Part shown: piece after piece, positions 2,425 through 50,003 of the stretch
Numbering within the stretch: position 1 is the stretch's first letter
Layout: each line of letters starts with the position of its first letter
Source: Escherichia phage UE-S1
Length of the DNA stretch: 64,000 nucleotides
Direction: 5' to 3' (one strand)
Sequence record: ON568341.1
The notes under the pieces: generated by a model
Databases searched by the model: none
What the model was told of the DNA's origin: nothing
The model's input: only the letters and a program-made list of their open reading frames with translations
Position numbers and translations under genes: made by a program

Positions 2425-3495
2425 ATGTATACTATTGATGATGAAATAATTAATAATAAATTTATTTCTGATACATACAATGCATATGATATATCTAAAA
2501 TAATTCTCAAGGAAAAGTATCCTCAATTTGATTGGGATACTATTGACCTTGAGAATTTAAAAACTGATGATTATTGTAAAAATGACATTATTGGATATAT
2601 ACAAGATAAAAAAAATATAAAATTGTATGGCATTAAATGTGAAAAATGCTCCCAAAATTACAAACTAAATGGTCTAGGGATATATTTTTCATATAAAGGA
2701 AATTTAGTTAAGGGTAAGTGTCCATGTAATTGTAGTAAGCATAAATTCTACACAAAATATCAAAATATTTTTTTGATTAATGAAAAAGCAAAAACGTTAA
2801 ATTATATTTTTTGTGGTTTTGTTGATGAGTATAAAGGTAAAAATAAAACAAAAATAAAATTATATTGTCCAAATAACAAACATGGTATATGGGATACAAC
2901 ATTAATATATAGTTTTATAGAATCAAACAATGGATGTATTAAATGTGCACATGAATCAGTCGGGTTAAGTAATAGTATAACTTTCGCAGATCATATAAAA
3001 GATTTTTTATCAACTGGTAAGTATAATAAAAATACAAAATTTTGGAAATCTAATAAGATTGACAGTAGAGGATATAATAATTATTGGTTTTGCCAATGTC
3101 CAATATGTAAAACTACAGTTGAGGCATCTACTACAAATCTTAAAAGTGGGAAAGTATCATGTTTATGTAACGGGAACACCCAGCAACAGGGATATATAAA
3201 TTTAGTACTTGACAATGATATACCAATTGCATTAAAATATGGAATAACATCTAATACAGAAGTCAGAGAAAAAACACAAAATCGCAATTCAATCTATGAT
3301 ATTGTAAACTGTGGTGTCTGGGAGTTTGAATCTTCTTTGTTATGTAAATCAGCAGAAGCGGAATGTAAAAGAACTTTCTCACCAGTACTTGAAGCTCGTG
3401 AAATGAAAGATGGATATACTGAAACTACATCACCATTAGATATTGACAAAATCATTGAAATATATGAAAATTGGGGTGGTGTGCGAATAAAATAA
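2425..3495 (+). CDS. Cys-rich hypothetical protein with three repeated Cys-cluster modules
   Basis: Clusters CEKC..CPCNC, CPNNKHG..CIKC, CQCPIC..CLCNG; likely zinc-binding. Confidence 0.5.
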   Translation: MYTIDDEIINNKFISDTYNAYDISKIILKEKYPQFDWDTIDLENLKTDDYCKNDIIGYIQDKKNIKLYGIKCEKCSQNYKLNGLGIYFSYKGNLVKGKCPCNCSKHKFYTKYQNIFLINEKAKTLNYIFCGFVDEYKGKNKTKIKLYCPNNKHGIWDTTLIYSFIESNNGCIKCAHESVGLSNSITFADHIKDFLSTGKYNKNTKFWKSNKIDSRGYNNYWFCQCPICKTTVEASTTNLKSGKVSCLCNGNTQQQGYINLVLDNDIPIALKYGITSNTEVREKTQNRNSIYDIVNCGVWEFESSLLCKSAEAECKRTFSPVLEAREMKDGYTETTSPLDIDKIIEIYENWGGVRIK

Positions 3496-3507: not shown

Positions 3508-4299
3508 ATGAAATTTGTTGTAACGTCAGACGTACACGGTGGCACTGATTACCTCCATAGTGGTGATTACAGTGATACAGTACTGTTCATTGCTGGAGAC
3601 TTCGATGAAGTTAAACGCAGTCGTTACCGTACTGGTATCGAATCACTATGTAAGCAGTTCAAAAATGTAGTGCTGGTTCCTGGCAATCACGAATACTATG
3701 GTTCTAATATCCACAAAACGCATAAAGTTCTATCTGACATGCAAGATGAGATTCCCAATTTCATCTTTTTGCAAAACAAATTTGTATGGCTGGATGGGGT
3801 ACTTCTTGTTGGTAGTACTCTGTGGACAGACTTCGATAAAGGTAACTCTTTGACTAAGTTTGATGCTCGTCAAAAGATGAATGATTATAAACATATCCGT
3901 CATGGAACAACATCCGAGCCTTGGCGTAAGAAGTTGACACCAGATGATACGGAGTTCATGCATTATAAAGATAAACAATTTATTAAAAATTCTATTGACA
4001 CGGCTCGCTTTATGCATGATAATGATTTCAAGGTAATTGTGATTACACATCACGCACCAAGTTATCAAAGTGTTTCACCAAAATATAAAAATGATTCCCT
4101 GAATGGCTGTTACTGTTCAGATATGGATCAGTACATTGAAGATTTGGGTGCTGATATTTGGATTCATGGTCATGTTCATAGTAGCTTTGACTACCACATT
4201 GGTAAGACACGTATCATTTGTAATCCACGAGGCTATGAATCGTACAGTGGTGCTTGTGAGAATTTTGATTACAATCCTAAATTAGTATTTGAAATTTAA
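3508..4299 (+). CDS. calcineurin-like metallophosphoesterase
   Basis: Motifs SDVHGG, IAGDFD, PGNHEY, ITHHAPS, HGHVHSS; GGAGG RBS. Confidence 0.75.
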   Translation: MKFVVTSDVHGGTDYLHSGDYSDTVLFIAGDFDEVKRSRYRTGIESLCKQFKNVVLVPGNHEYYGSNIHKTHKVLSDMQDEIPNFIFLQNKFVWLDGVLLVGSTLWTDFDKGNSLTKFDARQKMNDYKHIRHGTTSEPWRKKLTPDDTEFMHYKDKQFIKNSIDTARFMHDNDFKVIVITHHAPSYQSVSPKYKNDSLNGCYCSDMDQYIEDLGADIWIHGHVHSSFDYHIGKTRIICNPRGYESYSGACENFDYNPKLVFEI

Positions 4300-5165: not shown

Positions 5166-5861
5166 ATGGTTGAACAATTCAATTTTGGTGGTTATGCTAA
5201 TGGTGAAGTAAGTAACATTTCTATTCCGTATGTAGTTGAAAAAGTTAATGGTTCAGAGCGTACATATGATCTAGCATCTCGTATGATGCAAGACCGTATC
5301 ATTTTCCTTGATACTGATTTCAATGACCAGATGGCACATATCATCAAACAACAATTGGTGTGGTTAGACTCACAAGGTGATTCCCCTATTACATTCTATA
5401 TTAGTTCACCAGGTGGTTCAGTACATGCAGGTTTGGGCATCGCTGATATTGCTAAATCTTGTGTATCACCAATCCGTACTGTAGTAATGGGTTATGCAGC
5501 ATCAATGGGGTGTTATACACAATCTGTTATTGGGACTAAAGGCTTCCGTTTGGGTGGTAAACGTTCCTACTTCATGTGTCACCAAGTAAGTTCTGGTACG
5601 AAAGGTCTAATTACTGACCAGAAAATTTCACTTAAACATTCTGATGAACTGAACACGTTGCTGACGAAAGAAATCGCTGAAGCTGTTGGTGTTTCTCATG
5701 AACAACTACTGAAAGATGCAGACCGTGATTTGTGGTTGAATGCTGAAGAAGCACTCGAATATGGTGAAAAAGGATTTATCGATGGTATTATCCTTGGACC
5801 ACGCAACGAGAAAGGTCAATACCTAGTCAAGCGTCGTGGTGGTGTTGAAGAGTGGGTGTGA
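5166..5861 (+). CDS. clpP: ClpP-family serine peptidase
   Basis: Motifs SSPGGSV, GYAASMG (catalytic Ser), MCHQ (His); extended -10 promoter upstream. Confidence 0.75.
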   Translation: MVEQFNFGGYANGEVSNISIPYVVEKVNGSERTYDLASRMMQDRIIFLDTDFNDQMAHIIKQQLVWLDSQGDSPITFYISSPGGSVHAGLGIADIAKSCVSPIRTVVMGYAASMGCYTQSVIGTKGFRLGGKRSYFMCHQVSSGTKGLITDQKISLKHSDELNTLLTKEIAEAVGVSHEQLLKDADRDLWLNAEEALEYGEKGFIDGIILGPRNEKGQYLVKRRGGVEEWV

Positions 5862-8281: not shown

Positions 8282-10183
8282 TTACGCACTGATTGTTACA
8301 GTTGCAGTATCTGTTTTATTACCATCAGCAGTAGCCACTGTAATGACTACAGAACCTTCTTCTAGAGCAGTTACTAATCCCTCATCACTAATAGATACTT
8401 TAGTAGGTTCATCTGCACTATAAGTTACTGATTTGTTAGTTGCGTTAGATGGAAGAACTTCTGGAACTAGTTGAACTGTTTTAGTACCTGATAGTGAAAG
8501 TTCAGTAGTTTTAGGTGTTAAACTAACACTGGATACAGGAACTGGAATATTAACAGTAATAACACCTTGACCTGTTTTACCACTTCCATCAGCAGCAGTT
8601 GCGATAATGTTTGCAGTACCATTAGTTAGTGCAGTTACAATACCAGTACTAGCATCAACTTTTGCTACAGCAGGTTCACTAGAAGACCATGTTACAGATT
8701 TATTAGTTGCGTTAGATGGAAGAACTTCAGCAGCCATTGCTTGAGTTGCTTTAACAGCAGTCAATGTTTTAGTTGCTGGAGTAACATTAATAGATGCTAC
8801 AGGAACTGGAATATTAACAGTTACCACGCAAACTTTAGTAAATCCACCATCAGATGTGGTTGCTGTAATATTTGCAGTACCGTTTGCAACAGCAGTGATT
8901 AACCCAGTTGGACTTACCGTTGCGACACCCTCAGCAGAAGTAGTGTATGAAATATCTTTACGACGAGCGTTATCTGGAATAACAGATGCAGTTAATTGTT
9001 GAGTAGCACCTACCGAAGTTAGGGTTGCGGTCAACGGAGTCATATTAATACCAGTTACTGGGATCGTTACATCAATCACTGATTCAGCAGTTTTAGCACC
9101 ATCATCAGTGGTAACAGTAATAGTTGTAGTACCGTTATCAACCGAAGTTACTAGACCAGTATTACTAACTTTTGCTACGTCTGGATATGAAGAAACATAT
9201 GAAACTGCTTTATTGGATGCAGTTGCAGGAGCAACGGTTGTTTCTAATTGTTTAGTATCACCTAATGTTGAGAATGTATAAGTACTAGGAGTCATAGTGA
9301 CACCAGATACCGGTGTTTTCACAGTGATAGTAGTAGTATCAGTTTTAGCACCATCTTCGGTTGTTGCTGTAATCACCACTGTACCGTTAGCAACACCAGT
9401 TACTAGACCAGAAGTAGGGTTAACGGTTGCTACATCAGGTGTTGCTGAAGACCATGTAACGTTTTTATTAGTTGCATCATCAGGAGATACTGTAGCCGTT
9501 AATTGTTGAGTACCGCCAACGTTAATTGTTGCAGTTTTAGGAGAAACAATAACACCACTAACTGGAGTTGTTACGGTAAATGCACAAACATCGGTGAAAC
9601 CACCATCATGAGTAGTAACTGTTACATTTGCATTACCATTAGCACGGGCAATTGCTAAACCAGTTTCAGCATCAACTTCAACTATTGTTGGAGCAGAGGA
9701 ACTATAACTTACTGTTTTATCATTTGCATAATCTGGATCAATTGTAGCTGATAGCTGTTGTGTACTACCAACTTTAAGTGCTACAACTTTAGGTGAAATA
9801 ATAACACCATCAACTGGAGTAGTATAATCACGTTTAACCACACGACCATTGTTCAATTTAATAATACGACCCATATAAAGAGTAGTATATCCCTTACTAA
9901 TCCCATCATCTACATAAATCATGAATGAATTGTCTTGAACCATATTAATTGCGTCTACTGGTTTAACGGAATTTGGAATGTCGATACCACGGGTATCATA
10001 CCAACACATGGAAACTTTGTAATAGATATCACCATTATCATTTATGAGATCATAAACGTTACTGGAACGTTGACGGTTAATATATAAAGTTTCGGTTAAC
10101 ACCTTACCATCGATTTTAGCGACAGAAACTTTAATACCACCAATACCAAATGGCAATTTACCTTCACTAGATATTGCTTTCAT
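8282..10183 (-). CDS. Ig-like (Big_2-type) repeat protein, possible virion decoration protein
   Basis: Only convincing - strand gene; ~150-aa N-terminal domain then about six ~80-aa repeats (VTVTTHDGGFTDVCAFTVT, ITATTEDGAKTDTTTITV, ITVTTDDGAKTAESVIDV); AAGGAAAG RBS. Confidence 0.75.
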   Translation of the reverse strand: MKAISSEGKLPFGIGGIKVSVAKIDGKVLTETLYINRQRSSNVYDLINDNGDIYYKVSMCWYDTRGIDIPNSVKPVDAINMVQDNSFMIYVDDGISKGYTTLYMGRIIKLNNGRVVKRDYTTPVDGVIISPKVVALKVGSTQQLSATIDPDYANDKTVSYSSSAPTIVEVDAETGLAIARANGNANVTVTTHDGGFTDVCAFTVTTPVSGVIVSPKTATINVGGTQQLTATVSPDDATNKNVTWSSATPDVATVNPTSGLVTGVANGTVVITATTEDGAKTDTTTITVKTPVSGVTMTPSTYTFSTLGDTKQLETTVAPATASNKAVSYVSSYPDVAKVSNTGLVTSVDNGTTTITVTTDDGAKTAESVIDVTIPVTGINMTPLTATLTSVGATQQLTASVIPDNARRKDISYTTSAEGVATVSPTGLITAVANGTANITATTSDGGFTKVCVVTVNIPVPVASINVTPATKTLTAVKATQAMAAEVLPSNATNKSVTWSSSEPAVAKVDASTGIVTALTNGTANIIATAADGSGKTGQGVITVNIPVPVSSVSLTPKTTELSLSGTKTVQLVPEVLPSNATNKSVTYSADEPTKVSISDEGLVTALEEGSVVITVATADGNKTDTATVTISA

Positions 10184-10557: not shown

Positions 10558-11163
10558 ATGAAACGATTATTGAAAGAGATTATACAAACCGTTGTTATAA
10601 TTGCTGCATTAAACTTTCCTGCGGCGGCAGAAGTTTCAAAAAAAGCATCTGTTTTTCTATTAAATGATCATGTTGGGTCAATTGATGGTGAACTAAATGA
10701 TAAAACTGTACAAGATGTGGAGCAGTTGTGGAAAGAAAAAAAATTTAAAATTTTAACAATTACATCACCTGGTGGTGATTTTGATGCTGGTATTAAAATG
10801 GGAAATTTTGTTAGAGACAATGGTATAAATTTAATTGTTTCTAGATATTGCAATTCAGCATGTACTGTGGTATTCTTTAGTGTGCCCCCTGAAAAGCGAT
10901 ATATGACAAATCAATCAGTACTGGGATTACATAACATTTCGATCAAAAGTAACGTTAGAGATAGGGATAATACCTTTGTATCTGTTAGACAATTATCAAC
11001 ATTTACTGAAGAAATGGCAACAAAAGTAGGATTTTTATTTACACTATATTCAGCTAATGGAATTCCACCTAGCGTTCTATATAGAGTTAGTCGTGCACGT
11101 GGTGAAGATGTTGTTATCTTAACAAAAAAAGACCTAATTCATTACGGTTCGGTAAATCCATAA
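10558..11163 (+). CDS. secreted ClpP/S49-fold protein
   Basis: Signal-peptide-like N-terminus (VVIIAALNFPAAAEV); ITSPGGDFDAG and NSACTVV..GLHN pattern parallels the ClpP motifs at 5166. Confidence 0.45.
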   Translation: MKRLLKEIIQTVVIIAALNFPAAAEVSKKASVFLLNDHVGSIDGELNDKTVQDVEQLWKEKKFKILTITSPGGDFDAGIKMGNFVRDNGINLIVSRYCNSACTVVFFSVPPEKRYMTNQSVLGLHNISIKSNVRDRDNTFVSVRQLSTFTEEMATKVGFLFTLYSANGIPPSVLYRVSRARGEDVVILTKKDLIHYGSVNP

Positions 11164-11231: not shown

Positions 11232-11492
11232 ATGACAAACATCCAGAATTTGACGTCTATTATTTTTTATGCTACAGTGGTGATGTATACTATTGTACTT
11301 ATTTTAACAGTTTTTATTTACAAAGATTACAAAAAAGGCTTTATTAATAGCTCAACAATGAAGTTCAATTCTAAATTTGAAGCAATTATATTTTATGTTT
11401 TGACAACATCATATTTGTTGTGTATAATGTTATTAGGGTCATTGATTTATATTTTATATACAACATTATTTGCAATTGGAGCTATTTTATGA
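11232..11492 (+). CDS. small membrane protein
   Basis: Strongly hydrophobic segments; stop overlaps next start (ATGA). Confidence 0.45.
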   Translation: MTNIQNLTSIIFYATVVMYTIVLILTVFIYKDYKKGFINSSTMKFNSKFEAIIFYVLTTSYLLCIMLLGSLIYILYTTLFAIGAIL

Positions 11493-12085
11493 CATGTATT
11501 ATTGCACACACTGATGGTGTAACTTCATTTATTGCAGGGGACAAGATGGGGAGTGATGGTTTTACGAAATCAATCCAAACAGAGCCTAAAGTGTTTGAGA
11601 AAGAATTTGTAAAGATTAGTGGTGATGACGGCTTGACTCGTACAAAAGATGTTATGACAATTGGATTCACTACATCATTTCGTATGGGTCAACTGCTAAC
11701 TTATAATTTAAATTTACCAGACCAAAATTCAAATGAGACGTTTCTACAGTATTTAGTACTGAAAGTTATTCCTATTATTCGTCAAATGTTTAAAGACGAA
11801 TGGGGTGCACGTGATACAACACAAGATGTTGGTGGTGGTCAATTTATTATTTTGCACAATCATAAGATTTATGAAATTCAGGAAGATTTTTCAGTTCTCC
11901 AGGCAAAATCAAGAGTTGCATCAGTTGGTAGTGGTACATATCATGCAATTGCAGCGATGCAAGCATACATTGATCTTGAGAAAGAAACTAACGTACAACT
12001 ACATGAACGTATCAAATCCATTTTCAAAATTGTCAGTGATAATGTGTCGAGTGTAAGCGAAGAGTTTGATGTATTAAAATATTAA
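11489..12085 (+). CDS. HslV-like N-terminal-nucleophile (Thr1) peptidase
   Basis: MTCIIAHTDGVTSFIAGDKMGSDG resembles HslV N-terminus ([23 protein letters not shown]) with Thr directly after Met; VASVGSGTYHAIAAMQA resembles HslV IAIGSGGPYAQAAARA; start set at ATG 11489. Confidence 0.6.
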   Translation: MTCIIAHTDGVTSFIAGDKMGSDGFTKSIQTEPKVFEKEFVKISGDDGLTRTKDVMTIGFTTSFRMGQLLTYNLNLPDQNSNETFLQYLVLKVIPIIRQMFKDEWGARDTTQDVGGGQFIILHNHKIYEIQEDFSVLQAKSRVASVGSGTYHAIAAMQAYIDLEKETNVQLHERIKSIFKIVSDNVSSVSEEFDVLKY

Positions 12086-12100
12086 AATTATAAGAGAGAA

Positions 12101-12295
12101 ATGATGGCATACACAATTTATGAATGGATTTTGAGTTTTATTATAGTATTTTTTATGGTTGTAATTTACAATAATGCTACATGCTTATATAGAGATTTAA
12201 AATCCAATGGTTATCATGCAAACAATAATTTAATGTATGCCTATCATATTGGAATCATTCTATTATTATCAATATATTTAATTGGTTTTATATAA
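12101..12295 (+). CDS. small membrane protein
   Basis: Two hydrophobic helices. Confidence 0.4.
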   Translation: MMAYTIYEWILSFIIVFFMVVIYNNATCLYRDLKSNGYHANNNLMYAYHIGIILLLSIYLIGFI

Positions 12296-12304
12296 GGATT
12301 GCGT

Positions 12305-13057
12305 ATGATATCAGAAAAATTTATAAGTAATGAAGGAAACAAGAGATTACTTATCATCTCAGGAGCAGGTCTTTCCGTTGAAAGTGGGATGGAGCCATTT
12401 CGATTTGATGATGGCTTATGGGATACATTTAAAATTAATGACGTATGTAATATTGCAAATTTAGATACAAAATATCATGTTGTTCATTCGTTTTATAACA
12501 CACTGCGTGTTAAACTGGGTCAATGTGAACCAAATGCAATGCATTATTTTATCAAATCCTTAGAGGATCAATATGGTGATTGTTTCCTTCATATGACCTC
12601 CAACATGGATGATCTTTATACACGTATTGGTGGTAAAGAACTCAAACTTCATGGTAATTTGTGTGAAGTGATAGAAAATTATAGTATTAATGGTGATGAT
12701 TATAACATTGTTAACTGTGGTTATGAGCCATATATACCAAAACATGATGTTTTTGCTAAACCAAATGTAGTGATGATTGGTGAATATCACCGTTACGTTG
12801 ATGGTGTTCGTTTGCCAATATACGAAGAAAGAAATAATGTTTTAAAAACACTTACCGAAAACGATACTGTGATTGTTATTGGAAGTAGCGATACAGTGCT
12901 TGTGTGGTCCAGATTAGCTGCGGCATTGCCCTGTTATAGCGTTAATGTTAACATTCGCAAAAATGATAATGATTTTCTGTTCAATGAAAAAATTATCAAA
13001 CCAGCTACCAAAGCAATACATCAATTAGAGACTATAATTAAGGAACGTATGAAATGA
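12305..13057 (+). CDS. Sir2-family (sirtuin-like) NAD-dependent protein
   Basis: GAGLSVESGMEPFR (NAD-binding GAGIS..GIPDFR motif), TSNMDDL (TQNID-like), LHGNL (catalytic His), VIVIGSSDT; no Zn-binding Cys pairs; start at first ATG (track ORF begins at TTG 12299). Confidence 0.7.
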   Translation: MISEKFISNEGNKRLLIISGAGLSVESGMEPFRFDDGLWDTFKINDVCNIANLDTKYHVVHSFYNTLRVKLGQCEPNAMHYFIKSLEDQYGDCFLHMTSNMDDLYTRIGGKELKLHGNLCEVIENYSINGDDYNIVNCGYEPYIPKHDVFAKPNVVMIGEYHRYVDGVRLPIYEERNNVLKTLTENDTVIVIGSSDTVLVWSRLAAALPCYSVNVNIRKNDNDFLFNEKIIKPATKAIHQLETIIKERMK

Positions 13058-13605
13058 GTGTTAAAGAAGTTCCTTTTGGTGAATATGGTTCACGTGCCAA
13101 TTTTGTATTTTGCTATTTCTTTGCAAGAAAATGTAACCCTTACGAAAATTACGAATTGAATGATATACCAGAAGTAAATTTAGTATTACTCCAATTACGA
13201 TGGGATGGCCTTCTAGGGGGATGTGGTGGGACAGTTGAAAGTACTGATATCTCACTAGAAGATGCGTTACGTCGTGAAATTCAAGAAGAGATGGATTACA
13301 ATATTTTTGTTTCCCATCTTCGACCACTTAAAACTTTTGAAATTTATCCAGGTGCAAACAGTCATAGTTTTAGCTATGAAGTAACCTATGATGAGTTGAA
13401 ACACATTAGAGATGGATACACTAATGCTAAACATGCGAGTGCTGAAGTGGCTGGTGTAAATTTATGTCATATTTCTCGTTATTCTAAGGGACAAAATCGA
13501 GAAGCGGGATATAATAATCTTATGACTCAGAACTTCATTGGTACAGCAAAACAAGAATTGGAGTATCTGGTTCAAAAAGAAAACTTACTAATTAGTTATC
13601 TATAG
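13054..13605 (+). CDS. Nudix-like hydrolase (non-canonical box)
   Basis: GGCGGTVESTDISLEDALRREIQEEMD approximates the Nudix box with a 3-residue insertion; start overlaps Sir2 stop (ATGA). Confidence 0.45.
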   Translation: MSVKEVPFGEYGSRANFVFCYFFARKCNPYENYELNDIPEVNLVLLQLRWDGLLGGCGGTVESTDISLEDALRREIQEEMDYNIFVSHLRPLKTFEIYPGANSHSFSYEVTYDELKHIRDGYTNAKHASAEVAGVNLCHISRYSKGQNREAGYNNLMTQNFIGTAKQELEYLVQKENLLISYL

Positions 13606-13614
13606 GAGTTTAAC

Positions 13615-13935
13615 ATGTCTTACTCAATGTTTTTGGATGATATCCGTGATGCAAATCTATATTATCCAAACCAAGATATGGTGGTATGTCGTGACTTTAA
13701 AAGTGCATGTGAATATGTTATTGAAAATGGAATTCCAGCATTTGTATCATTTGACCATGACTTGGGTGATGTGAGCGAAGACGAAAAGACTGGATATTCT
13801 TTTGCTAAGTTTCTTATTGATTATATGTTTGATAATAATATTAAAGAACCGTTTGAGTACTTTGTTCACAGTAGTAATCCTGTTGGTAAAATTAATATTG
13901 AAACATACTTAAACAATGGGTTTAACGCATTATGA
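13615..13935 (+). CDS. small REC/CheY-like-fold protein (hypothetical)
   Basis: Motifs FLDDIRD, SFDHDLGD, HSSNPVG. Confidence 0.4.
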   Translation: MSYSMFLDDIRDANLYYPNQDMVVCRDFKSACEYVIENGIPAFVSFDHDLGDVSEDEKTGYSFAKFLIDYMFDNNIKEPFEYFVHSSNPVGKINIETYLNNGFNAL

Positions 13936-14234
13936 TTCAAACACACATCAAAAGTCTTATTTGTACTATTCTGTTGGGCACGGGAGTGTTTTTGTTCGGA
14001 CAATATCACGAGAATACTAAGCGTACCAACATTCACTACAATACCGCAGAAGTTGTTAGTTTAGGGCAATGTAGTGAGTCAAAATGTTCGTTTATGTACA
14101 AAACCAGCAATGGTGAAGTACGTAATGGACTATCAAGAGAACCAGTTTCAATTGGTCAACTTGTTTACCAGGAGTGCTGGGAAGAAAAGGTTCGAGGTTC
14201 CCGTTGCTATGTTGAATACGAACCAAATATGTAA
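13932..14234 (+). CDS. hypothetical protein, N-terminal TM helix
   Basis: ORF in array, ATGA overlap with upstream stop. Confidence 0.45.
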   Translation: MIQTHIKSLICTILLGTGVFLFGQYHENTKRTNIHYNTAEVVSLGQCSESKCSFMYKTSNGEVRNGLSREPVSIGQLVYQECWEEKVRGSRCYVEYEPNM

Positions 14235-14294: not shown

Positions 14295-15734
14295 ATGAAA
14301 AAATATACAATTGACACAAACGTACTTCTATCTGACCCTAATGCATCTATTGCGTTTGATGGTGCTGCAATCATTCTACCATTTACTGTTCTAGAAGAAT
14401 TGGATTCAATTAAGAGTCGTAGTGTGGATGTTTCACGAGATGCTCGCGTTGCTATTCGTAACATTGAAGCAATTATTGCAAATGCATCTCATGATGAAAT
14501 TAGTAGTTCTGGTGTTAATATTGCTGATGTTCATACCAATATGAATCCTGACAGCAAATTGTTTGTTATTACAAACGAAGAAGCTGAAGCACTAATTCGT
14601 ACTAAAGGTTCAAACGACAAAGTTCAAACCCTTCTCAAAAGCACTGTACCTGATGATAAAATTATTCTGGTAGCTTTAGCAACCGAATCAGTACTGGTAA
14701 CTCGTGATATCAACATGCGTATCAAAGCACTAAGTTATGGTGTCGAGGTACAAGACTATCGTCATGATATTGTTATTGGTGATAGTGATTTGATTCACAT
14801 TGGTCAACATCATATGGAAATTAATTTTTGGGATGTATATAGCAATTTAACAAATACAAATATTAAAACTGAACAAATCGGTCGTCGATTGTATCATTAC
14901 ATCCCTAAAAGCTTGATTGAGCATTTGCTTCCACAAAATCTATGTATTGGTGATTATCTATATGATGATGCTGATGTATTATTTGTATACGAAGGTCAAT
15001 CAGCCATTGAGGAAGATGATGGTACACTAACACCAGAAGATATTTTGGTATTCCAAGATATTGGTCAATCAGTAGCGTTGCGTACTAAAGTATGGGATAT
15101 TAAAGCAAAGAATATTCAGCAAGCACTTGCCATCAACAGTATTCTCGATCCTGATGTACATCTAACAGTACTACTAGGTTCGGCTGGAACTGGCAAAACA
15201 TTAGTGACGATTGCTACTGCACTAGAGTTAGTACTGGAAAAACGCAAATATGACCGTGTTGTGTTCTCAAAACCACAAGATTCACAATGGGCTGAAATTG
15301 GTTTCTTACCAGGTTCCGAAATGGAAAAAATGCTACCACATTGTGGCCCTGCACTGGATGCATTAGAATTTTTACACAAAGATGATGCCTCACCACAAGG
15401 TAGTATCGAAGAGATTCTTAAACGTAACGTGATGCAATTTAAAGCACTAAACTTTGTGCGTGGACGCTCATTCACTAATACGATTCTTGTAGTTGATGAA
15501 TTCCAAAACATTACACCTGCACAAGCAAAAACTATCTTGACACGAGCAGGATTAAACTGTAAAGTAGTGATTATGGGAAACTTAGCACAGATTGATAGCA
15601 AATTTATCAGTCCAGTAAACAGTGGTTTGACATATGTAACTGAAAAATTCAAAGATTGGAGTGGTTGCCGTATCATTGAATTAGAAGGTGTTGTTCGTTC
15701 ACCACTTGCTGAATTTGCTGAAGAAAATATGTAA
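14295..15734 (+). CDS. phoH: PIN-domain PhoH-like ATPase
   Basis: N-terminal PIN motif (IDTNVLL..PFTVLEELD); Walker A GSAGTGKT in C-terminal PhoH domain. Confidence 0.8.
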   Translation: MKKYTIDTNVLLSDPNASIAFDGAAIILPFTVLEELDSIKSRSVDVSRDARVAIRNIEAIIANASHDEISSSGVNIADVHTNMNPDSKLFVITNEEAEALIRTKGSNDKVQTLLKSTVPDDKIILVALATESVLVTRDINMRIKALSYGVEVQDYRHDIVIGDSDLIHIGQHHMEINFWDVYSNLTNTNIKTEQIGRRLYHYIPKSLIEHLLPQNLCIGDYLYDDADVLFVYEGQSAIEEDDGTLTPEDILVFQDIGQSVALRTKVWDIKAKNIQQALAINSILDPDVHLTVLLGSAGTGKTLVTIATALELVLEKRKYDRVVFSKPQDSQWAEIGFLPGSEMEKMLPHCGPALDALEFLHKDDASPQGSIEEILKRNVMQFKALNFVRGRSFTNTILVVDEFQNITPAQAKTILTRAGLNCKVVIMGNLAQIDSKFISPVNSGLTYVTEKFKDWSGCRIIELEGVVRSPLAEFAEENM

Positions 15735-16094: not shown

Positions 16095-16122
16095 ATCCCT
16101 GTCAATTGGCAGGGATTTTTTC
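16095..16122 (+). terminator. intrinsic terminator
   Basis: ATCCCTG / CAGGGAT stem then T5. Confidence 0.7.
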
Positions 16123-17980: not shown

Positions 17981-18952
17981 ATGAAAACTAAAATTATTTC
18001 TGAACAAAAAATCGGCAATACTACAGTACTGAATATTGAAGTTCAAGATCTTAGTAATGTTCGTTCTCTTACTGTTTGTACTCAGAGAGATGATTTGACT
18101 GATTTTTATAACTCCGAATACATGTCAGAAGAACATTGGGATATGGGATGGTTAGACGGTAGTAGTTATATCAGTTCTCGTTATAGTTTTGGTTCTCATG
18201 AAAATATTGAACAAGTAAAAAATGAGTATATTAAACTCAGTGATACTATTGAAATGAAAGAAGAAGATTGTGTAGAACTTTTCATTTTTGAATTCGATGC
18301 AGGAAATGGTAATTCATTACTAGTAAGTAATATTGAAGAACATTTAATGTATCATGATATTGAAGATGTAGATTTTAAAAGTATTAAAAATGTTGTTCAT
18401 ATGGTTGGTGGTAGTATTACTGATGATTCAGATATCGGTCATAATATTTCACTGTGCTTAATTTCTCATCCAAAAACTCGTGGTTTTAAAGTTCCACAAG
18501 ATGAAACTTACGTGTTTGAAACTGCTGATGAAGGAATTTATCCTTGGAATGATTATGTAGAATACTATGGTCATTTCTGTTCTGATATAAAAGAACTGAA
18601 AAAAGGCGAACGATATTTTGATATGTTCCGTGCAGCACAGCGTTTAGTACTGAATAATACTGAACTATTTCCTGATCGCGGTGAAGAAAATATGATTGAT
18701 ATTATCTTCAAGAACTATGATTATGTGCAGAACATTCCTGATAATGTACATTTGGAATATGTTCACGGTTCTTCAAACAAATTCTATAATATTGAATTGA
18801 ATGTTTCAGTGTGTGAAGTAATCATTGAGTACGGTGCTATTGGTAAAACCAGTACTACCGATGGTGAAGAATTCGAAACTATTGAAGAAGCACGTAAGTT
18901 CTTCGAGAAGAAAGTAATTTCCAAAATTAAAAGTGGTTATATCCCAAAATGA
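17981..18952 (+). CDS. hypothetical protein with C-terminal WGR-like domain
   Basis: C-terminus KFYNIEL..EYGAIGKTSTTDGEEFETIEEARKFFEKKVISKIKSGY resembles WGR domain. Confidence 0.45.
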   Translation: MKTKIISEQKIGNTTVLNIEVQDLSNVRSLTVCTQRDDLTDFYNSEYMSEEHWDMGWLDGSSYISSRYSFGSHENIEQVKNEYIKLSDTIEMKEEDCVELFIFEFDAGNGNSLLVSNIEEHLMYHDIEDVDFKSIKNVVHMVGGSITDDSDIGHNISLCLISHPKTRGFKVPQDETYVFETADEGIYPWNDYVEYYGHFCSDIKELKKGERYFDMFRAAQRLVLNNTELFPDRGEENMIDIIFKNYDYVQNIPDNVHLEYVHGSSNKFYNIELNVSVCEVIIEYGAIGKTSTTDGEEFETIEEARKFFEKKVISKIKSGYIPK

Positions 18953-33314: not shown

Positions 33315-33716
33315 ATGACTACAGTTGATGATATCTATAGTACTATACGAAATATGAGTACAGATAGAAAAGTATTTGGTGATAAAGAAAAATCTAAGTG
33401 TTATGGTATTGATTCTTTTGATATAATTTCGTATGAGTACAACACGAATGGAAATAGTTCACTGAATATCGTCTGCCCTCGTGACCCAGAAAATAATTTT
33501 ATGTATGTTGAAATTAATAATGATGGGATGTTTTTTACAAAAGTTTTCAAAGGTGGTATTAATTACGAACCTATTGAATGTATGAATGAAGAAACTTTCT
33601 TTCAAGAAGATACAATTATCAATTTAGGTTTTAGTTTTGCGGATTATAAAACATTAGAACATGACTTTAATCGTTATTATAACGGTTTCTTAAAGGAGTT
33701 AACAATTTATCTATGA
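33315..33716 (+). CDS. hypothetical protein
   Basis: ORF in array. Confidence 0.45.
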   Translation: MTTVDDIYSTIRNMSTDRKVFGDKEKSKCYGIDSFDIISYEYNTNGNSSLNIVCPRDPENNFMYVEINNDGMFFTKVFKGGINYEPIECMNEETFFQEDTIINLGFSFADYKTLEHDFNRYYNGFLKELTIYL

Positions 33717-34945
33717 ATAACCAATATGTTGAACAAACAATAGTGAAACACTTGGCTGGGTCACAAGCCTACGGAACCAGTACGCCTGAAAGTGATACTG
33801 ATTATCGTGGTATTTTTCTTGCTAATAAAGAATTTATTCTTACGCCATTCTATAAGGTTAAAGAAGTAGCTGATAAAAATGAAGAAGATACCAAATTCTA
33901 TGAGTTAAATCAGTATTTAAAATTATACACTGAAGCCAACCCTAATATTCTGGAATCACTATGGGTTGAACCAGAACACATTGTAGAAAGTACTGAGATT
34001 TATGACTATCTTCGTTCATTTAACCAAAAACTTCTTAGTTCTAAGATTGCATTTTCATATACTGGATATGCATATAATCAGATTAAGCGTATGACAAATC
34101 ATCACGGTTGGATGGATAAAGAGCGAATTGCTGAAAAACGTTTAAATGAGATTTTAGAAGAACACCCTGTCGATGAGGTTCTTGCGTGGATGTATGATTC
34201 ATTCCCACAATATCTTGTTGAACGTTTAGATACATCTAACTTACATCCATTTAATACTAAAAAGATTGATTTTGAAAAATATATGCGTGATACGTCATTG
34301 CAGTTAGTTTCGAAAAATCCATTAAAGCAATATCATTTTGTAAGATTAGTGCATAACTACACTACTGACAAAATTCTAGATCGTGATTTCAATTTATTGA
34401 ATTTTAATAATGGCTATGAACTAATTCATTACGGAGAAAACATTTTTGCGATTATTAAAAATCCAAATGAAAGCACTATCAACGGTGATGGATCATTGCG
34501 TTATTTTTCTAAAGAGCGTAGTACTGAAGAATTGAAAACTAAACCAGAACTAATTGTCAAATTTAACGAAAAAGAATATCAGGAAAATAGTGAGAATAGA
34601 AAAAGTTATCATAAATGGAAAGAAAATCGTAATGCCAAACGTGCTATTTTAGAATCACAACACGGATACGATTGTAAACATGCTATGCACACAATCCGAC
34701 TTTTGAATAGTGCAGAAGAAGCATTACAAAGTGGAATTATTCAAGTTAAACGACCAGATGCACAAATGTTGATGGATATTCGTAATGGTAAATGGAAGTA
34801 TGAAGAAGTCTTAGAATATTTCGATGATAAAGTACAATACATTCGTGATGTTCTATATAAGAAATCAGTACTTCCCAAAAAACCTAACATCAAGTTAGCA
34901 TCGAAAATTATAATTGATATTCGAGAAATGCAATGGTATAAGTAA
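33713..34945 (+). CDS. pol-beta-superfamily nucleotidyltransferase
   Basis: N-terminal GSQAYGTSTPESDTDYRG matches the NTase-fold signature G[SG]..(9-13)..D.D; 410 aa with uncharacterised C-terminal region. Confidence 0.55.
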   Translation: MNNQYVEQTIVKHLAGSQAYGTSTPESDTDYRGIFLANKEFILTPFYKVKEVADKNEEDTKFYELNQYLKLYTEANPNILESLWVEPEHIVESTEIYDYLRSFNQKLLSSKIAFSYTGYAYNQIKRMTNHHGWMDKERIAEKRLNEILEEHPVDEVLAWMYDSFPQYLVERLDTSNLHPFNTKKIDFEKYMRDTSLQLVSKNPLKQYHFVRLVHNYTTDKILDRDFNLLNFNNGYELIHYGENIFAIIKNPNESTINGDGSLRYFSKERSTEELKTKPELIVKFNEKEYQENSENRKSYHKWKENRNAKRAILESQHGYDCKHAMHTIRLLNSAEEALQSGIIQVKRPDAQMLMDIRNGKWKYEEVLEYFDDKVQYIRDVLYKKSVLPKKPNIKLASKIIIDIREMQWYK

Positions 34946-47549: not shown

Positions 47550-48662
47550 ATGAAAAAGTATTTGGTTGGCGGTTACGTCCGTGACCGTTTAATGGGTCTT
47601 CGTGCAAAAGACAAAGATTATGTCATTGTTGGTGCATCCGAATCTGATCTTAAGTACTTGCAAAGTATTGGCTATAAGCAAGTAGGTAAGGATTTCCCAG
47701 TATATCTAAGTCCAGAAGGTAATGAACACGCATTAGCCCGTACTGAGCGTAAAACTGGTACTGGATATGGTGGATTTGAAGTGGATACAAAAGGCGTAAC
47801 ACTAGAACAAGATTTGTATCGCCGTGACCTTACAATAAACAGTATCGCGTATGATCCAGTACTGCAAATTCACATCGACCCATACGGTGGAAAAGCTGAT
47901 ATCAAGAATAAAGTTCTACGCCATGTATCCGAACACTTCAAAGAAGATCCATTGCGTGTATTACGCCTGTGTCGCTTTGCAACGCGTTATTCTGATTTCT
48001 CTATACACGAGACTACTGAAGCACTTGTCATCGATATGGTAGCGTCTGGTGAGCTAAATCATCTTGTTCCAGACCGTGTTTTTGTGGAATTTGAAAAAGC
48101 ACTGTCGGAAGAAAAGCCAGCTAAGTTCCTTAAGACTCTAAGTCATTTTGGTTATTACGAAAATGTGTTTAAAACACCATTGACCAAAAAGAATTTGGAT
48201 CTCATTGATTATATTTCAGATAACTGTACTGATGTATATAAACCATATTTTCTGTGGTCTATTCTTCTAGAAAATGAAGAAGTAAATAATGACTCAGAAA
48301 TTAACGGTGCTATTAAAGTTCCTGTTAAATATGTCAAATTTAGTAATTACATCAAACTTTTCCGTGATGATATCAAAACATTCCGTAAAAAGACCCCAAA
48401 TGAAATGGGACAGTTATTACTGGATATGAATATTAAAAATAATGGAGGTGAAGAATTCCTTTATAAAGTGTTGGAATACTTCATTTTGCGAAAAGAAATT
48501 GATTTAGAACTTGAAGATCTAATTATTAAAGTTTATGATCGTTATACTGATGTTGAATTACCTGATATTCAGCAAATGGTTAAAGATGGTGAACTTGAAA
48601 CGTCAGAAATTCGTGATTTTGTTTGTGAACTCCGATGTGAAGCAATCAAGAAACTATTCTAA
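47550..48662 (+). CDS. tRNA nucleotidyltransferase (CCA-adding enzyme)
   Basis: N-terminal GGYVRDRLMG and KDKDYV match the Pol-beta head domain of CCA-adding enzymes / poly(A) polymerases. Confidence 0.7.
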   Translation: MKKYLVGGYVRDRLMGLRAKDKDYVIVGASESDLKYLQSIGYKQVGKDFPVYLSPEGNEHALARTERKTGTGYGGFEVDTKGVTLEQDLYRRDLTINSIAYDPVLQIHIDPYGGKADIKNKVLRHVSEHFKEDPLRVLRLCRFATRYSDFSIHETTEALVIDMVASGELNHLVPDRVFVEFEKALSEEKPAKFLKTLSHFGYYENVFKTPLTKKNLDLIDYISDNCTDVYKPYFLWSILLENEEVNNDSEINGAIKVPVKYVKFSNYIKLFRDDIKTFRKKTPNEMGQLLLDMNIKNNGGEEFLYKVLEYFILRKEIDLELEDLIIKVYDRYTDVELPDIQQMVKDGELETSEIRDFVCELRCEAIKKLF

Positions 48663-48770
48663 AAAACAGTGGGACAGAATACCAATAACTGATATAATTA
48701 TTAGTATCTGAACATCGATTGATGAAAAAGAGATAAGATATGCGTTATAGTTGTGGTATAATATTTTATC

Positions 48771-49172: not shown

Positions 49173-49173
49173 T

Positions 49174-49664: not shown

Positions 49665-49694
49665 CAATGAAGAACAAAAGTTCTTCTTAACAAT

Positions 49695-49949: not shown

Positions 49950-49963
49950 TAAAATATAAATTA

Positions 49964-49993: not shown

Positions 49994-50003
49994 GGAGAAC
50001 ATA

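Follow-up and report, generated by a model that had tools for sequence, protein, structure and literature searches.

The sirtuin, Nudix and cREC (cyclic-phosphate-processing receiver) genes of Escherichia phage UE-S1 belong to a conserved phage gene set centered on NAD+ and ADP-ribose, of which UE-S1 carries the Asteriusvirus copy. The set is genuine, with Pfam and PHROG E-values far beyond chance, and the locus is already known, being annotated in sister phages and discussed in print. As for its role, the reading that we favor, tentatively and at somewhat less than an even chance, is NAD+-dependent processing of damaged RNA ends, countering host ribonuclease toxins; Iyer et al. (2021, 2022) independently reached the RNA-repair prediction.

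A conserved operon in a jumbo coliphage

The window analyzed here is a 64,000-nucleotide stretch of UE-S1 (ON568341.1), a jumbo coliphage of the Asteriusvirus (121Q/PBECO4) type. The sirtuin (hereafter Sir2), Nudix and cREC reading frames all lie on the plus strand, where an earlier note on this DNA had placed them, among the following features:

11400..11428, plus strand: promoter-like site, a perfect sigma-70 consensus (TTGACA-17-TATAAT, 12/12 matches) upstream of the HslV-like gene
11489..12085, plus strand: HslV-like peptidase gene (phrog_1040, 2.1e-21), equivalent to gp475 of 121Q
12101..12295, plus strand: 64-aa ORF, confined to the 121Q group, whose two hydrophobic segments may make it a small membrane protein
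12305..13057, plus strand: zinc-less, class-III-derived sirtuin of 250 aa (Pfam SIR2, 7e-20; phrog_2162, 2.5e-78)
13054..13605, plus strand: NUDT16/X29-type Nudix hydrolase of 183 aa (Pfam Nudt16-like, 1e-18; NUDIX, 1e-6; phrog_9999, 5e-90)
13615..13935, plus strand: cREC protein of 106 aa (Pfam cREC_REC, 1.5e-22; PHROG, 2e-30)
13932..14234, plus strand: 100-aa protein with an N-terminal hydrophobic segment (phrog_14661 "membrane protein", 1.2e-42)
14295..15734, plus strand: PIN-PhoH (PhoH2-type) predicted RNA helicase/nuclease (Pfam PhoH, 1.6e-42; PIN_4, 4e-20)
16095..16116, plus strand: terminator-like hairpin of 9 bp with 5 GC pairs, followed by TTTTTT

Sir2 and Nudix overlap in an ATGA at 13054-13057, which bears out the coupling and the single operon that the earlier note had proposed, and a second ATGA (13932-13935) joins cREC to the gene for the 100-aa protein. 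Given these overlaps, and with promoter-like and terminator-like sites bracketing the genes, the sirtuin, Nudix, cREC, small membrane protein and PIN-PhoH appear to form one operon; the last two of these are a continuation that the earlier note had not described. The promoter-like site is the sole perfect match to TTGACA-17-TATAAT within the 64 kb, and sites at most one mismatch from the sigma-70 consensus number 9, all on the plus strand, against 2.1 expected (none of 100 shuffles reaches 9). Judged by its sequence, it is a candidate start for the transcription unit, of host type; the fetched stretch of 121Q holds no perfect match. The hairpin is the strongest terminator-like site between 10 and 16.5 kb and a candidate end of the same unit.

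The gene set is not uniform in its conservation. The HslV-like gene, first after the promoter-like site, is not a conserved member of the module, and in other jumbo relatives its slot holds NAMPT, NMNAT and Acb1. The 64-aa ORF, in which hydrophobicity peaks above 2.0 at either end (Kyte-Doolittle scale, 19-residue windows), has no family match among Pfam and PHROG profiles; it is open and conserved in 121Q, though unannotated there, and is absent from the other loci, and its 10 synonymous and 9 nonsynonymous codon changes relative to 121Q are weak coding evidence. Homologues of the 100-aa membrane protein hold the same position in five other loci (L003, L004, L009, L010 and L013) and are found in 8 of the 36 sirtuin clusters of the census described below, making it a conserved member of the jumbo-phage module. 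PIN-PhoH, the last conserved gene, keeps its position in L008, L009, L010, CBB and the jumbo clusters of the census. The window also encodes an RlaP "RNA repair pathway" nucleotidyltransferase and a CCA-adding enzyme.

In 121Q the orthologues are annotated as gp476 (Sir2), gp477 (nudix hydrolase), gp478 (hypothetical), gp479 (membrane protein) and gp480 (PhoH-like), and the gene order is identical in 121Q, ph0011, PBECO4 and other Asteriusvirus genomes, at 90-92% nucleotide identity over the region and 94-96% identity for the Sir2 protein. Sir2 and Nudix were thus already labeled, and gp478, the cREC protein, is called hypothetical in most Asteriusvirus records. The ratios of synonymous to nonsynonymous codon changes relative to 121Q are 78:14 for Sir2, 23:3 for Nudix and 3:1 for cREC, an excess that indicates purifying selection on all 3 genes. 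Farther afield, relatives whose sirtuins are no more than 42-46% identical still have the order Sir2, Nudt16-like, cREC, small membrane protein, PIN-PhoH.

Section 3.7.3 of Iyer et al. 2022 (Iyer, Burroughs, Anantharaman and Aravind; Viruses 14:1977) describes a neighborhood of type-1 phage sirtuin, Nudix, cREC and PIN genes, predicts that it serves NAD+-dependent RNA repair, and includes a 2H phosphoesterase in the scheme. UE-S1 matches this arrangement in gene order and in operon, with a sirtuin of the zinc-less clade, Nudix, cREC and, as the PIN protein, PIN-PhoH, but has no linked 2H gene, keeps Nudix and cREC as separate genes, and adds the conserved 100-aa membrane protein. In relatives, the 2H protein is a member of the anti-CBASS family Acb1 (3e-18 and 1e-15, which exceeds the Pfam cut-off); the text of that section does not say so. 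Neither in the 64-kb window nor in the fetched parts of 121Q (200-205 kb excluded) is there a homologue of this 2H/Acb1 gene; the same holds for NAMPT and NMNAT in the window and fetched parts, and neither is annotated anywhere in 121Q. The UE-S1 module is therefore pared down: it is missing the Acb1-type 2H gene that relatives carry, as well as their NAMPT and NMNAT, the phage pair of NARP2 NAD+ reconstitution. Beyond this reduced variant of a module already annotated and discussed, the UE-S1 window adds nothing new.

The zinc-less sirtuin

The mechanical Sir2 reading frame opens at TTG 12299 and gives 252 aa; translation likely begins at ATG 12305, 6 nt past an AAGGA ribosome-binding site, giving 250 aa in agreement with the 121Q annotation. 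The protein matches Pfam SIR2 (PF02146) at 72.1 bits (cut-off 24, E 7e-20) over 178 of 180 profile positions, and its GAGLSVESG...FR, TSNMDDL, LHGNL and VIGSS motifs align with GAGISAESG...FR, TQNIDNL, MHGEL and AIGTS of CobB, the sirtuin of the host E. coli. G20-A21-G22, S27-G28, F32-R33, N100, D102 and H116-G117 are all present, match their CobB equivalents, and are invariant or nearly so across the clade. CobB is also the best phmmer match (6.9e-22, with 30% identity over 241 aa), the likeness being much closer in the N-terminal half. The AF2 model (pLDDT 84.8, pTM 0.84) has the Rossmann and small domain fold, and the top 50 Foldseek matches are all sirtuins, CobB first and then Sir2Af1/2 and SIRT5 (TM 0.72-0.81 to CobB, Sir2Af1 and SIRT5). 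The earlier note had conceded that structure might place the 252-aa product in another Rossmann family; it sits among true sirtuins, and the note's motif-only family calls (a sirtuin without zinc cysteines, a Nudix and a REC-like protein) agree with the Pfam profiles and the structure search.

Zinc binding is usual for sirtuins, yet it is not what defines the Pfam SIR2 family. CobB has a CxxC pair; Sir2 and the phage homologues compared with it (9 or 10, from 5 lineages) have none, and so the four-cysteine zinc ribbon is absent. In its place the AF2 model puts a beta-rich small module, and the remodeled small domain carries the clade-specific motifs VCNI, GY..P and a conserved Trp. "Minimal Sir2", the term used in the earlier note, is thus not supported: the protein has 250 aa against the 242 of CobB-S, and the ribbon is replaced.

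CobB, SIRT5 and Sir2Af1 are NAD+-dependent protein lysine deacylases, with which Sir2 shares its fold and its NAD-binding and catalytic residues, and the main rival to RNA-end processing starts from this likeness. A CobB-like deacylase would strip proteins of the host or the phage of acetyl, succinyl or lipoyl groups (activating acetyl-CoA synthetase, for example), with Nudix and cREC clearing O-acyl-ADP-ribose and the ADP-ribose being cut to AMP and ribose phosphate. We rate this as possible but doubtful. The nearest relatives in sequence and in structure (TM about 0.8) are all protein deacylases, the complete deacylase catalytic set is kept, most clade members retain the class III Y-x-x-R motif, by which acidic acyl groups are recognized, public records annotate Sir2 in this way, and adjoining NAMPT/NMNAT would recycle nicotinamide here also. 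Moreover, ADP-ribose and its conjugates are known substrates of Nudix enzymes, NUDT16 included. A deacylase role was also argued by Skliros et al. 2016 for the zinc-less KVP40-type phage sirtuin, whose loss of zinc they noted.

Other features of the protein may fit a deacylase less well. Most other phage members of the clade keep Y-N-x-R-R, as CobB does; in UE-S1 the invariant Y64 is followed at +3 by Leu (Y64-N-T-L67), and the invariant Arg, R68, is shifted by one to +4. The best score against the NCBIfam CobB equivalog and subfamily models is 92.3 bits, where the cut-offs run from 221 to 395, and the zinc module, which helps to form the peptide-binding cleft, is remodeled across the whole clade. 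Unlike those of class III sirtuins, the genomic partners of Sir2 are RNA and ADP-ribose enzymes. A deacylase role explains neither why RNA ligase, kinase, HAD-SAK and PIN-PhoH genes repeatedly adjoin the sirtuin in several lineages nor why cREC, an aspartyl phosphoesterase, stands in place of a Macro domain or an esterase. There is no Macro-domain gene in the operon, and the sole Macro-like gene (50004-50480), about 37 kb off, scores below the Pfam cut-off; the adjacent Macro gene of SirTM-type sirtuin operons is thus missing.

The earlier note had likened the protein to the effectors of Thoeris, DSR and SIR2-HerA, and many prokaryotic Sir2 domains are indeed NADase effectors. A phage-borne enzyme of this kind would provide superinfection exclusion or abortive infection through NAD+ depletion, like ThsA, DSR or SIR2-HerA. 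We consider this very improbable. The PADLOC defense models give no Sir2 match at E <=0.1, no defense-type Sir2 is found among the top 50 Foldseek matches, and no sensor or partner (SLOG, HerA, pAgo or a large terminal domain) is fused to or adjoins Sir2, a single-domain protein of 250 aa. In addition, NAD+-synthesis genes adjoin the sirtuin in relatives, and it recurs, conserved, across about 1,000 records of virulent-type phages. By sequence and model alike, the protein appears to resemble CobB and the class III deacylases and not the defense-type NADases, and the analogy is not supported.

Nudix, cREC and the neighborhoods of the clade

The Nudix protein matches PF22327 (NUDT16-like) at 68.3 bits (cut-off 27), and NUDT16 structures top its PDB sequence search (2.3e-12). 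It belongs to the same subfamily as the NUDT16/X29 decapping and ADP-ribose enzymes and has the same variant box, with G-x5-E, a 4-residue insertion and RE-x2-EE, invariant in 7 homologues. The phage protein differs in that the G-U at the canonical box end is replaced by D-Y in UE-S1, and in being fused to cREC in some relatives (CBB, L003 and L004). The earlier note's "degenerate Nudix box" is apt for a variant, but not in the sense of an inactive one, for the box is an intact NUDT16/X29 variant with invariant glutamates. The fusions imply that Nudix and cREC would act consecutively on one substrate.

The 106-aa protein, noted earlier for its SFDHDLGD and HSSNPVG motifs, proves to be a member of a named family, cREC (PF20274; 80.5 bits, cut-off 27, E 1.5e-22), in which these motifs correspond to two invariant blocks, FDHDL and HSxNPxG. 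Its receiver fold is truncated to four strands and carries D8, D9, D47, H48, D49, S86 and N88, and its acidic pocket consists of Asp-Asp after strand 1, Asp after strand 3 and Ser/Thr after strand 4. By analogy with receiver and HAD enzymes, such an Asp-Asp...Asp...Ser pocket suggests phosphoryl-transfer chemistry and would be better suited to an ADP-ribose product that bears a phosphate than to one that bears an acyl group. A phosphodiesterase activity was predicted by Iyer et al. (2021, 2022), and no experimental paper on cREC activity was found in the literature searched. In the small sample of loci examined, no histidine kinase is found next to cREC; its partners are Sir2, Nudix, Rnl1, Rnl2, P-loop kinases and a metallophosphoesterase. 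RNA ligases are the commonest of these, and cREC adjoins Rnl2, Rnl1, kinase and metallophosphoesterase genes even where there is no sirtuin nearby.

The zinc-less sirtuin clade comprises 987 records in the phage collection, from virulent-type groups (T5-, rV5- and KVP40-like and jumbo phages). The census took in 36 nonredundant sirtuin clusters with 7-kb neighborhoods, with no null model for gene clustering in phage early regions. An RNA end-healing or sealing enzyme (cREC, Rnl1, a PNK-type kinase or a HAD-SAK phosphatase) lies within 7 kb in 18 clusters and is lacking in the other 18. The sirtuin-Nudix-cREC-PIN arrangement is found in 8/36, NAMPT in 13/36, NAMPT and NMNAT together next to Sir2 in 8/36, and a 2H/Acb1 gene in 7/36, all of jumbo type. 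Vequintavirinae have the order Rnl1, cREC, (AAA_33 kinase), Sir2, and T5-like phages have Sir2 followed by a HAD_SAK_2 "Swiss-army-knife RNA repair" phosphatase; some lineages carry the sirtuin without a NUDT16-type Nudix. The Vequintavirinae set looks like a split version of T4 Pnkp and Rnl1, in which cREC would replace the HAD phosphatase domain of Pnkp. That the same sirtuin clade stands beside differing RNA end-healing and sealing enzymes in unrelated lineages supports RNA-end processing.

All jumbo-type sirtuin clusters except the 121Q type have NAMPT, an NMNAT-Nudix and an Acb1-family 2H gene upstream of the sirtuin. Together with the Nudix-cREC fusions, this makes the NAD+/ADP-ribose theme of the earlier note a reasonable one. 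It also speaks for a signaling alternative, in which Nudix and cREC destroy ADP-ribose-derived messengers (Thoeris-type gcADPR and its kin) or cyclic nucleotides from within an anti-defense island, and the sirtuin either turns NAD+ into a decoy or regulator or modifies a defense protein of the host. Cleavage of the pyrophosphate linkage in ADP-ribose is a known activity of NUDT16-type enzymes. Processing of cADPr-type signals by cREC and Nudix was proposed by Iyer et al. 2021. Nonetheless, we think it improbable. UE-S1 has no NAMPT, NMNAT or Acb1 and yet keeps Sir2, Nudix, cREC and PIN-PhoH, so that the core is independent of them; the commonest partners of cREC are RNA ligases and not signaling components; the known anti-Thoeris proteins in the literature searched are sponges, no Nudix or cREC enzyme being reported among them; and neither the sirtuin nor PIN-PhoH has a clear role in signal degradation. 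The counter-defense role suggested in the earlier note thus holds only insofar as RNA repair is itself counter-defense, or else as this minority alternative.

Proposed NAD+-dependent processing of RNA ends

The chemistry that we infer for RNA-end processing is modeled on the Tpt1/KptA pathway (Tpt1, a 2H cyclic phosphodiesterase and a Macro Appr-1''-p phosphatase). A metal-independent host RNase would leave a 2',3'-cyclic phosphate on RNA, and cREC (plus the 2H enzyme in relatives) would open it to a monoester. The sirtuin would then spend NAD+ to strip the phosphate off the RNA, as Tpt1/KptA does: a phosphate oxygen would attack C1'' of NAD+ with departure of nicotinamide, and the 2''-OH of ADP-ribose, activated by the conserved His116, would attack the phosphate to yield ADP-ribose 1'',2''-cyclic phosphate, a two-step chemistry that would parallel the sirtuin deacylation mechanism. 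Nudix and cREC would degrade this product to AMP and phosphoribose, relatives would recycle nicotinamide with phage NAMPT/NMNAT, UE-S1 relying on its host, and the RNA would be sealed by a T4-type Rnl1 such as the one encoded by the close relative 121Q. As proposed, the 2 pathways have in common the spending of NAD+ to remove an RNA phosphate, the ADP-ribose cyclic phosphate by-product and its clearance by phosphoesterases. They differ in that Tpt1 has an ADP-ribosyltransferase fold and is not homologous to the Rossmann-fold phage sirtuin, and in that Nudix and cREC would do the clean-up performed by 2H and Macro enzymes in the Tpt1/KptA pathway.

RNA-end processing is supported by the Nudix-cREC fusions, the 18/36 partner count, the association of cREC with ligases, the RlaP and CCA-adding enzymes of the window, and the genuine T4-type Rnl1 and Pnkp that 121Q encodes about 15 kb upstream, just outside the region equivalent to the window. 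Several points count against it. Sir2 is closest in sequence and fold to bona fide protein deacylases, and we know of no sirtuin that acts on RNA. T4-type repair of tRNA by Pnkp and Rnl1 needs neither NAD+ nor a sirtuin and leaves no 2'-phosphate, and hence a Tpt1-like step is not obviously needed in UE-S1; the distance of Rnl1 and Pnkp, outside the operon, is a further difficulty. PIN nucleases require metal and leave no cyclic phosphates. UE-S1 lacks the 2H gene of the published scheme, and in relatives the membership of 2H in the anti-CBASS Acb1 family points away from RNA repair. Furthermore, 18 clusters have no RNA-repair partner within 7 kb, and the census has no null model.

A related possibility is that the module handles RNA 5' caps, with the Nudix stripping NAD or ADP-ribose caps or a 5'-adenylyl group (AppRNA), PIN-PhoH degrading or remodeling RNA, and the sirtuin using NAD+ or NAD-capped RNA. 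The Nudix does fall in a decapping subfamily (Nudt16-like, 1e-18; X29/NUDT16, 2e-12) and its gene shares an operon with that of a predicted RNA helicase/nuclease; removal of metabolite caps is known for mammalian NUDT16, and Tpt1 is able to make 5'-phospho-ADP-ribose caps. But the case is pure analogy, cREC would have no obvious role, and the lineages that have the sirtuin without a NUDT16-type Nudix are left unexplained; we regard this role as quite unlikely.

With regard to the sirtuin of the RNA-end processing scheme, it is a speculative proposal, already made in print and on balance an unlikely one, that the protein is no deacylase at all and is instead an NAD+ enzyme that removes or ADP-ribosylates phosphate on damaged RNA, Nudix and cREC destroying the ADP-ribose cyclic phosphate. 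The neighborhood census, the fusions and the phosphoesterase partner support an RNA-directed sirtuin without proving it. Phage sirtuins have been termed enigmatic since the KVP40 and T5 genomes, and the literature searched holds no biochemical study of any of them. If the RNA-repair prediction is true, it would mean a new reaction for the sirtuin superfamily, a first activity for the cREC family, and, in Nudix-cREC, a new way to destroy ADP-ribose cyclic phosphate. A gene found in about 1,000 phage records, those of T5-like phages included, would thereby gain a function, and an NAD+-consuming repair pathway would help to explain the phage NAD+ salvage genes that adjoin the sirtuin. The question bears on how phages survive ribonuclease-based and NAD+-depleting defenses.

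Layout of the operon

We tentatively favour the reading that the sirtuin of this phage and the genes that follow it use up NAD+ to process damaged RNA ends. The interval 12101-13935 holds four ORFs, all on the plus strand, and the membrane protein and PIN-PhoH genes come after them.

Genes of the sirtuin module (window coordinates)
12101-12295, plus strand: 64-aa hydrophobic ORF, open in the sister phage 121Q too
12305-13057, plus strand: sirtuin, 250 aa, Pfam SIR2
13054-13605, plus strand: Nudix hydrolase, Pfam Nudt16-like
13615-13935, plus strand: REC-like (cREC) protein, Pfam cREC_REC
13932-14234, plus strand: 100-aa membrane protein, phrog_14661 "membrane protein"
14295-15734, plus strand: PIN-PhoH protein, Pfam PhoH and PIN_4

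The mechanical ORF of the sirtuin runs from TTG 12299; the ATG at 12305, 6 nt past an AAGGA ribosome-binding site, gives the same 250 aa as the 121Q annotation. The ATGA overlap that the earlier note claimed for the Sir2 and Nudix genes is present at 13054-13057, and a second (13932-13935) couples the REC-like gene to that of the 100-aa protein. A promoter-like TTGACA-17-TATAAT site at 11400-11428, the sole perfect match in the 64 kb, and a terminator-like hairpin at 16095-16116, the strongest of the region, flank an HslV-like peptidase gene, the 64-aa ORF and the genes for Sir2, Nudix, cREC, membrane protein and PIN-PhoH; from the peptidase gene to PIN-PhoH, these are presumably co-transcribed. 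A consensus scan of the whole window found nine sigma-70-like sites with at most one mismatch (2313, 3995, 11400, 17863, 31473, 31660, 37070, 41424 and 49104), all on the plus strand, against 2.1 expected from shuffles, which suggests early or middle transcription by host RNA polymerase across much of the region.

The surroundings have features of their own. In the 7 kb ahead of the sirtuin gene lie three protease-like genes: a ClpP gene with a clear match (5166-5861, 3.9e-41), a divergent ClpP/NfeD-like gene (10558-11163, phrog_26024 "protease") and the HslV-like peptidase gene (11489-12085). Elsewhere in its genome 121Q is annotated with ClpS-like and ClpA-like genes, and the ClpP-, HslV-, ClpS- and ClpA-like genes make up a proteolysis repertoire of unusual richness for a phage. 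Further upstream stand three consecutive genes, whose products are an ATP-dependent DNA ligase (992-2413), a protein with a CapR-homology domain (2425-3495) and a metallophosphoesterase of calcineurin-like type (3508-4299); in the relative L010 a CapR-domain gene comes after PIN-PhoH. The only large minus-strand gene in that part of the window (8282-10183) encodes a 633-aa protein with six or more Big_2 Ig-like repeats, and at the orthologous place in the 121Q genome is a far shorter "virion structural protein; Ig domain". Two kb downstream of the terminator-like site, a 323-aa protein (17981-18952) ends in a C-terminal WGR domain (1e-10), the remainder giving no family match. WGR domains are mainly familiar from poly(ADP-ribose) polymerases.

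Protein families and the zinc-less sirtuin

The sirtuin, Nudix and REC-like identities, first called from motifs, were all correct, since the Pfam and PHROG matches agree. Well over the curated Pfam cut-offs, the sirtuin matches SIR2 (7e-20), the Nudix protein Nudt16-like (1e-18) and the general NUDIX family (1e-6), the REC-like protein cREC_REC, "cyclic-phosphate processing receiver domain" (1.5e-22), and the PIN-PhoH protein PhoH (1.6e-42) and PIN_4 (4e-20). The PHROG assignments are phrog_2162 Sir2 (2.5e-78), phrog_9999 nudix (5e-90), phrog_1479, a function-unassigned family, for cREC (2e-30), and phrog_14661 for the 100-aa protein (1e-42). Compared with 121Q, synonymous against non-synonymous changed codons number 78:14 for Sir2, 23:3 for Nudix, 3:1 for cREC and 12:6 for the membrane protein, which shows that all four are under purifying selection; the 64-aa ORF, with its frame intact, stands at 10:9 and is thus less secure as a gene.

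The best solved sequence relative of the sirtuin is E. coli CobB (6.9e-22), with 30% identity to CobB-S over 241 residues, mostly in the N-terminal NAD-binding half; NCBIfam CobB models match it with scores far under their cut-offs. An AlphaFold model built on an alignment with 22 homologues reached pLDDT 84.8 and pTM 0.84, and the structure search proposed in the earlier note returned true, classical sirtuins (CobB, Sir2Af1/2, SIRT5, Sir2Tm) for all 50 best Foldseek matches, with TM values reaching 0.81. Defence-type Sir2 NADases were missing from those 50. As a check of defence-system membership, PADLOC matched neither Sir2 nor cREC, and its Nudix match was weak and short. The analogy once drawn to Sir2 effectors of bacterial defence was therefore wrong, and a defence-type NADase is a very improbable identity for this protein.

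Zinc-ribbon cysteines are missing, as had been read from the sequence: the CxxC pair present in CobB is absent from all 10 phage sirtuins examined, which come from five lineages (jumbo, Mydovirus, rV5-like, T5-like plus Phapecoctavirus, and KVP40-like). These ten have common motifs absent from CobB, and they score 168-240 bits against the jumbo-clade profile, compared with 123 bits for CobB. Judged by HMM scores, pairwise identities and motifs in common, they appear to make up a coherent phage clade that lacks zinc and descends from class III sirtuins; the clade numbers 987 phage records. Its catalytic set is invariant or nearly so (GAG, S27-G28, F32-R33, N100, D102, H116-G117). Two relatives, P0011 and P0014 (L010:7001-7738), carry GNG where the NAD-binding motif is otherwise GAG, and YH or YD replaces the F-R of their cofactor loop. 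Both still sit within a complete NAMPT, Sir2, Nudix, cREC and PIN-PhoH module; they may be variants that are inactive or have an altered cofactor.

Zinc loss was already noted in KVP40-type phage sirtuins, for which protein deacetylation was proposed (Skliros et al. 2016). Plain CobB-like protein deacylation, with the O-acyl-ADP-ribose cleared by Nudix and cREC, is the main rival, and the deacylase-like look of the sirtuin counts against RNA-end processing; the active site of cREC is of a phosphoryl-transfer type, better matched to an ADP-ribose product with a phosphate than to one with an acyl group, which favours RNA-end processing, and we regard deacylation as somewhat unlikely.

The Nudix family call was right; the box that the earlier note took for degenerate is better called the NUDT16/X29 variant (G-x5-E, a four-residue insertion, RE-x2-EE). 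NUDT16/X29 is the closest relative (2e-12), and all Nudix-box glutamates are invariant in seven homologues. RNA cap metabolism, on NAD caps or AppRNA, is a quite improbable role for the module. The cREC protein is a truncated receiver with four strands, lacking both a fifth strand and a conserved lysine; its acidic pocket (D8, D9, D47 and S86) is retained, and it has R11, H48, D49, H85 and N88 as additional invariant residues.

Neighbourhoods in other phages

The core gene order is kept in metagenomic relatives with 46-58% sirtuin identity, with upstream additions of NAMPT, with or without NMNAT-Nudix, and a 2H gene in the jumbo relative L009. In phage CBB and two IMG/VR jumbo contigs, Nudix and cREC are one fusion protein with a linker of about 8 residues, and the existence of such fusions favours RNA-end processing. 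So does the fact that, across phages, sirtuin and cREC genes are both associated with genes for RNA ligase, kinase and RNA phosphatase. The rV5-like phage FV3 has an Rnl1-type ligase, a divergent cREC and Sir2; Klebsiella phage DP has Rnl1, cREC, an AAA_33 kinase, a small ORF, Sir2 and DNA ligase, with NAMPT and PRPP synthetase upstream; in T5-like Spc35, HAD_SAK_2 directly follows Sir2; and at the P0027 locus Sir2 is followed by a 108-aa protein that has no family assignment. Away from sirtuins, a T4-like contig has a cREC gene overlapping that of an Rnl2-type ligase, with Rnl1, kinase and metallophosphoesterase close by, and a bacterial distant cREC gene adjoins a metallophosphoesterase; two further distant cREC neighbourhoods (L027 and L029) gave no informative partners.

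A scan of viral contigs yielded 4 loci with a single cREC protein as query and 80 with a sirtuin alignment; the 80 IMG/VR loci fell into 36 sirtuin clusters at 75% identity. A partner that heals or seals RNA ends (cREC, Rnl1, PNK-type kinase or HAD-SAK) lies within 7 kb in 18 of the 36, NAMPT in 13, NMNAT-Nudix in 8 and an Acb1-type 2H gene in 7, and an ATP-dependent DNA ligase adjoins the sirtuin in 8, all counts being descriptive because there is no null model. The full jumbo core (Nudt16-like, cREC, membrane protein, PIN-PhoH) is within 7 kb in 8 clusters. Throughout the census the Nudt16 and cREC labels are merged, since fused proteins entered the second-round profiles, so that fused and separate genes are not told apart, and the label PIN_PhoH also catches plain PhoH in T5-like phages. 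Half of the clusters thus have no RNA-repair neighbour, which is counted against RNA-end processing.

Among jumbo-type clusters, only the 121Q type lacks NAMPT, NMNAT-Nudix and the 2H gene; our phage instead has ClpP-like and HslV-like genes upstream of its sirtuin gene. By Pfam, the relatives' 2H falls in the Acb1 family of anti-CBASS phosphodiesterases (3e-18 and 1e-15) and matches the general 2'-5' RNA ligase family only weakly; it is found at L009:6622-7059, at L013:6273-6719 (CBB_118, annotated "structural protein") and also in the jumbo loci L003 and L004. It is therefore weaker as evidence for RNA repair. The upstream flank of 2H, NAMPT and NMNAT-Nudix in these relatives looks like a counter-defence island, and the family of the 2H hints that the jumbo locus is in part such an island. 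Within it, the module might destroy ADP-ribose-derived or cyclic-nucleotide immune signals, a role that we consider improbable.

Proposed RNA-end processing

The NAD+/ADP-ribose theme of the earlier note was right. In the RNA-end processing that we tentatively favour, the sirtuin would move ADP-ribose onto an RNA phosphate and then free ADP-ribose cyclic phosphate via His116; cREC would open cyclic phosphates on RNA, on the by-product or on both, Nudix would cleave the ADP-ribose pyrophosphate, and PIN-PhoH would unwind or trim RNA. Also counted against it are that 2'-phosphate removal is not needed in T4-type repair, that cyclic ends are not made by PIN nucleases and that the ligase is outside the operon. 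A genuine T4-type Rnl1 (gp438, 201797-202939, RNA_lig_T4_1 and T4_Rnl1_C) and Pnkp (gp443, 204036-204968, AAA_33 kinase and HAD_PNKP) are found within 201.8-205.0 kb of 121Q (region L024), about 15-18 kb upstream of Sir2, and the equivalent position is just beyond the 5' end of the window. BLASTP with the FV3 and DP ligases fails to detect gp438, the sequences being too diverged.

Other genes of the window related to RNA or ADP-ribose
33713-34945: RlaP nucleotidyltransferase, 410 aa, Pfam RlaP "RNA repair pathway DNA polymerase beta family", 2.9e-16
47550-48662: CCA-adding/poly(A) polymerase-type nucleotidyltransferase
48771-49172: second, small Nudix, NudE-like
50004-50480: Macro-like gene, match 9e-4, under the Pfam cut-off

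The stretch 47550-50480 forms another group of genes connected with RNA and ADP-ribose; the 121Q orthologue of the Macro-like protein is "Appr-1-p processing" in RefSeq, and a glutaredoxin is annotated in 121Q between the small Nudix and Macro genes.

The module is not new, because it is annotated in sister phages and both its neighbourhood and a proposed mechanism are in the literature. At the DNA level the region shares 90-92% identity with Asteriusvirus jumbo coliphages, among them ph0011, 121Q and PBECO4. In the records of these phages the first two genes are already labelled "Sir2 (NAD-dependent deacetylase)" and "nudix hydrolase", and the third is usually "hypothetical". The cREC domain has been named and predicted to process cyclic phosphates or cADPr (Iyer et al. 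2021, Viruses 13:63). A sirtuin neighbourhood with Nudix, cREC and PIN genes has been described, as have a T4-like RNA ligase, cREC and kinase beside sirtuins of rV5/Mydo-type phages and a Swiss-army-knife HAD phosphatase beside those of T5 type, with the sirtuin proposed to act like KptA/Tpt1 on RNA 2'-phosphates (Iyer et al. 2022, Viruses 14:1977). No experimental test of these RNA-repair predictions for sirtuin and cREC was found in the literature searched; the "NARP3" paper was dropped as evidence on phage sirtuins because its Sir2 is a host defence. What the window itself adds is only a reduced variant of the known module.

In Vequintavirinae (Klebsiella phage DP, L016, 4056-6774; FV3, L011, 4707-6759) the order is Rnl1, cREC and a standalone AAA_33 kinase. 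This looks like a split T4 Pnkp with cREC in place of the HAD phosphatase domain and, if true, would give cREC its simplest function, that of an enzyme healing RNA 3' ends or cyclic phosphates.
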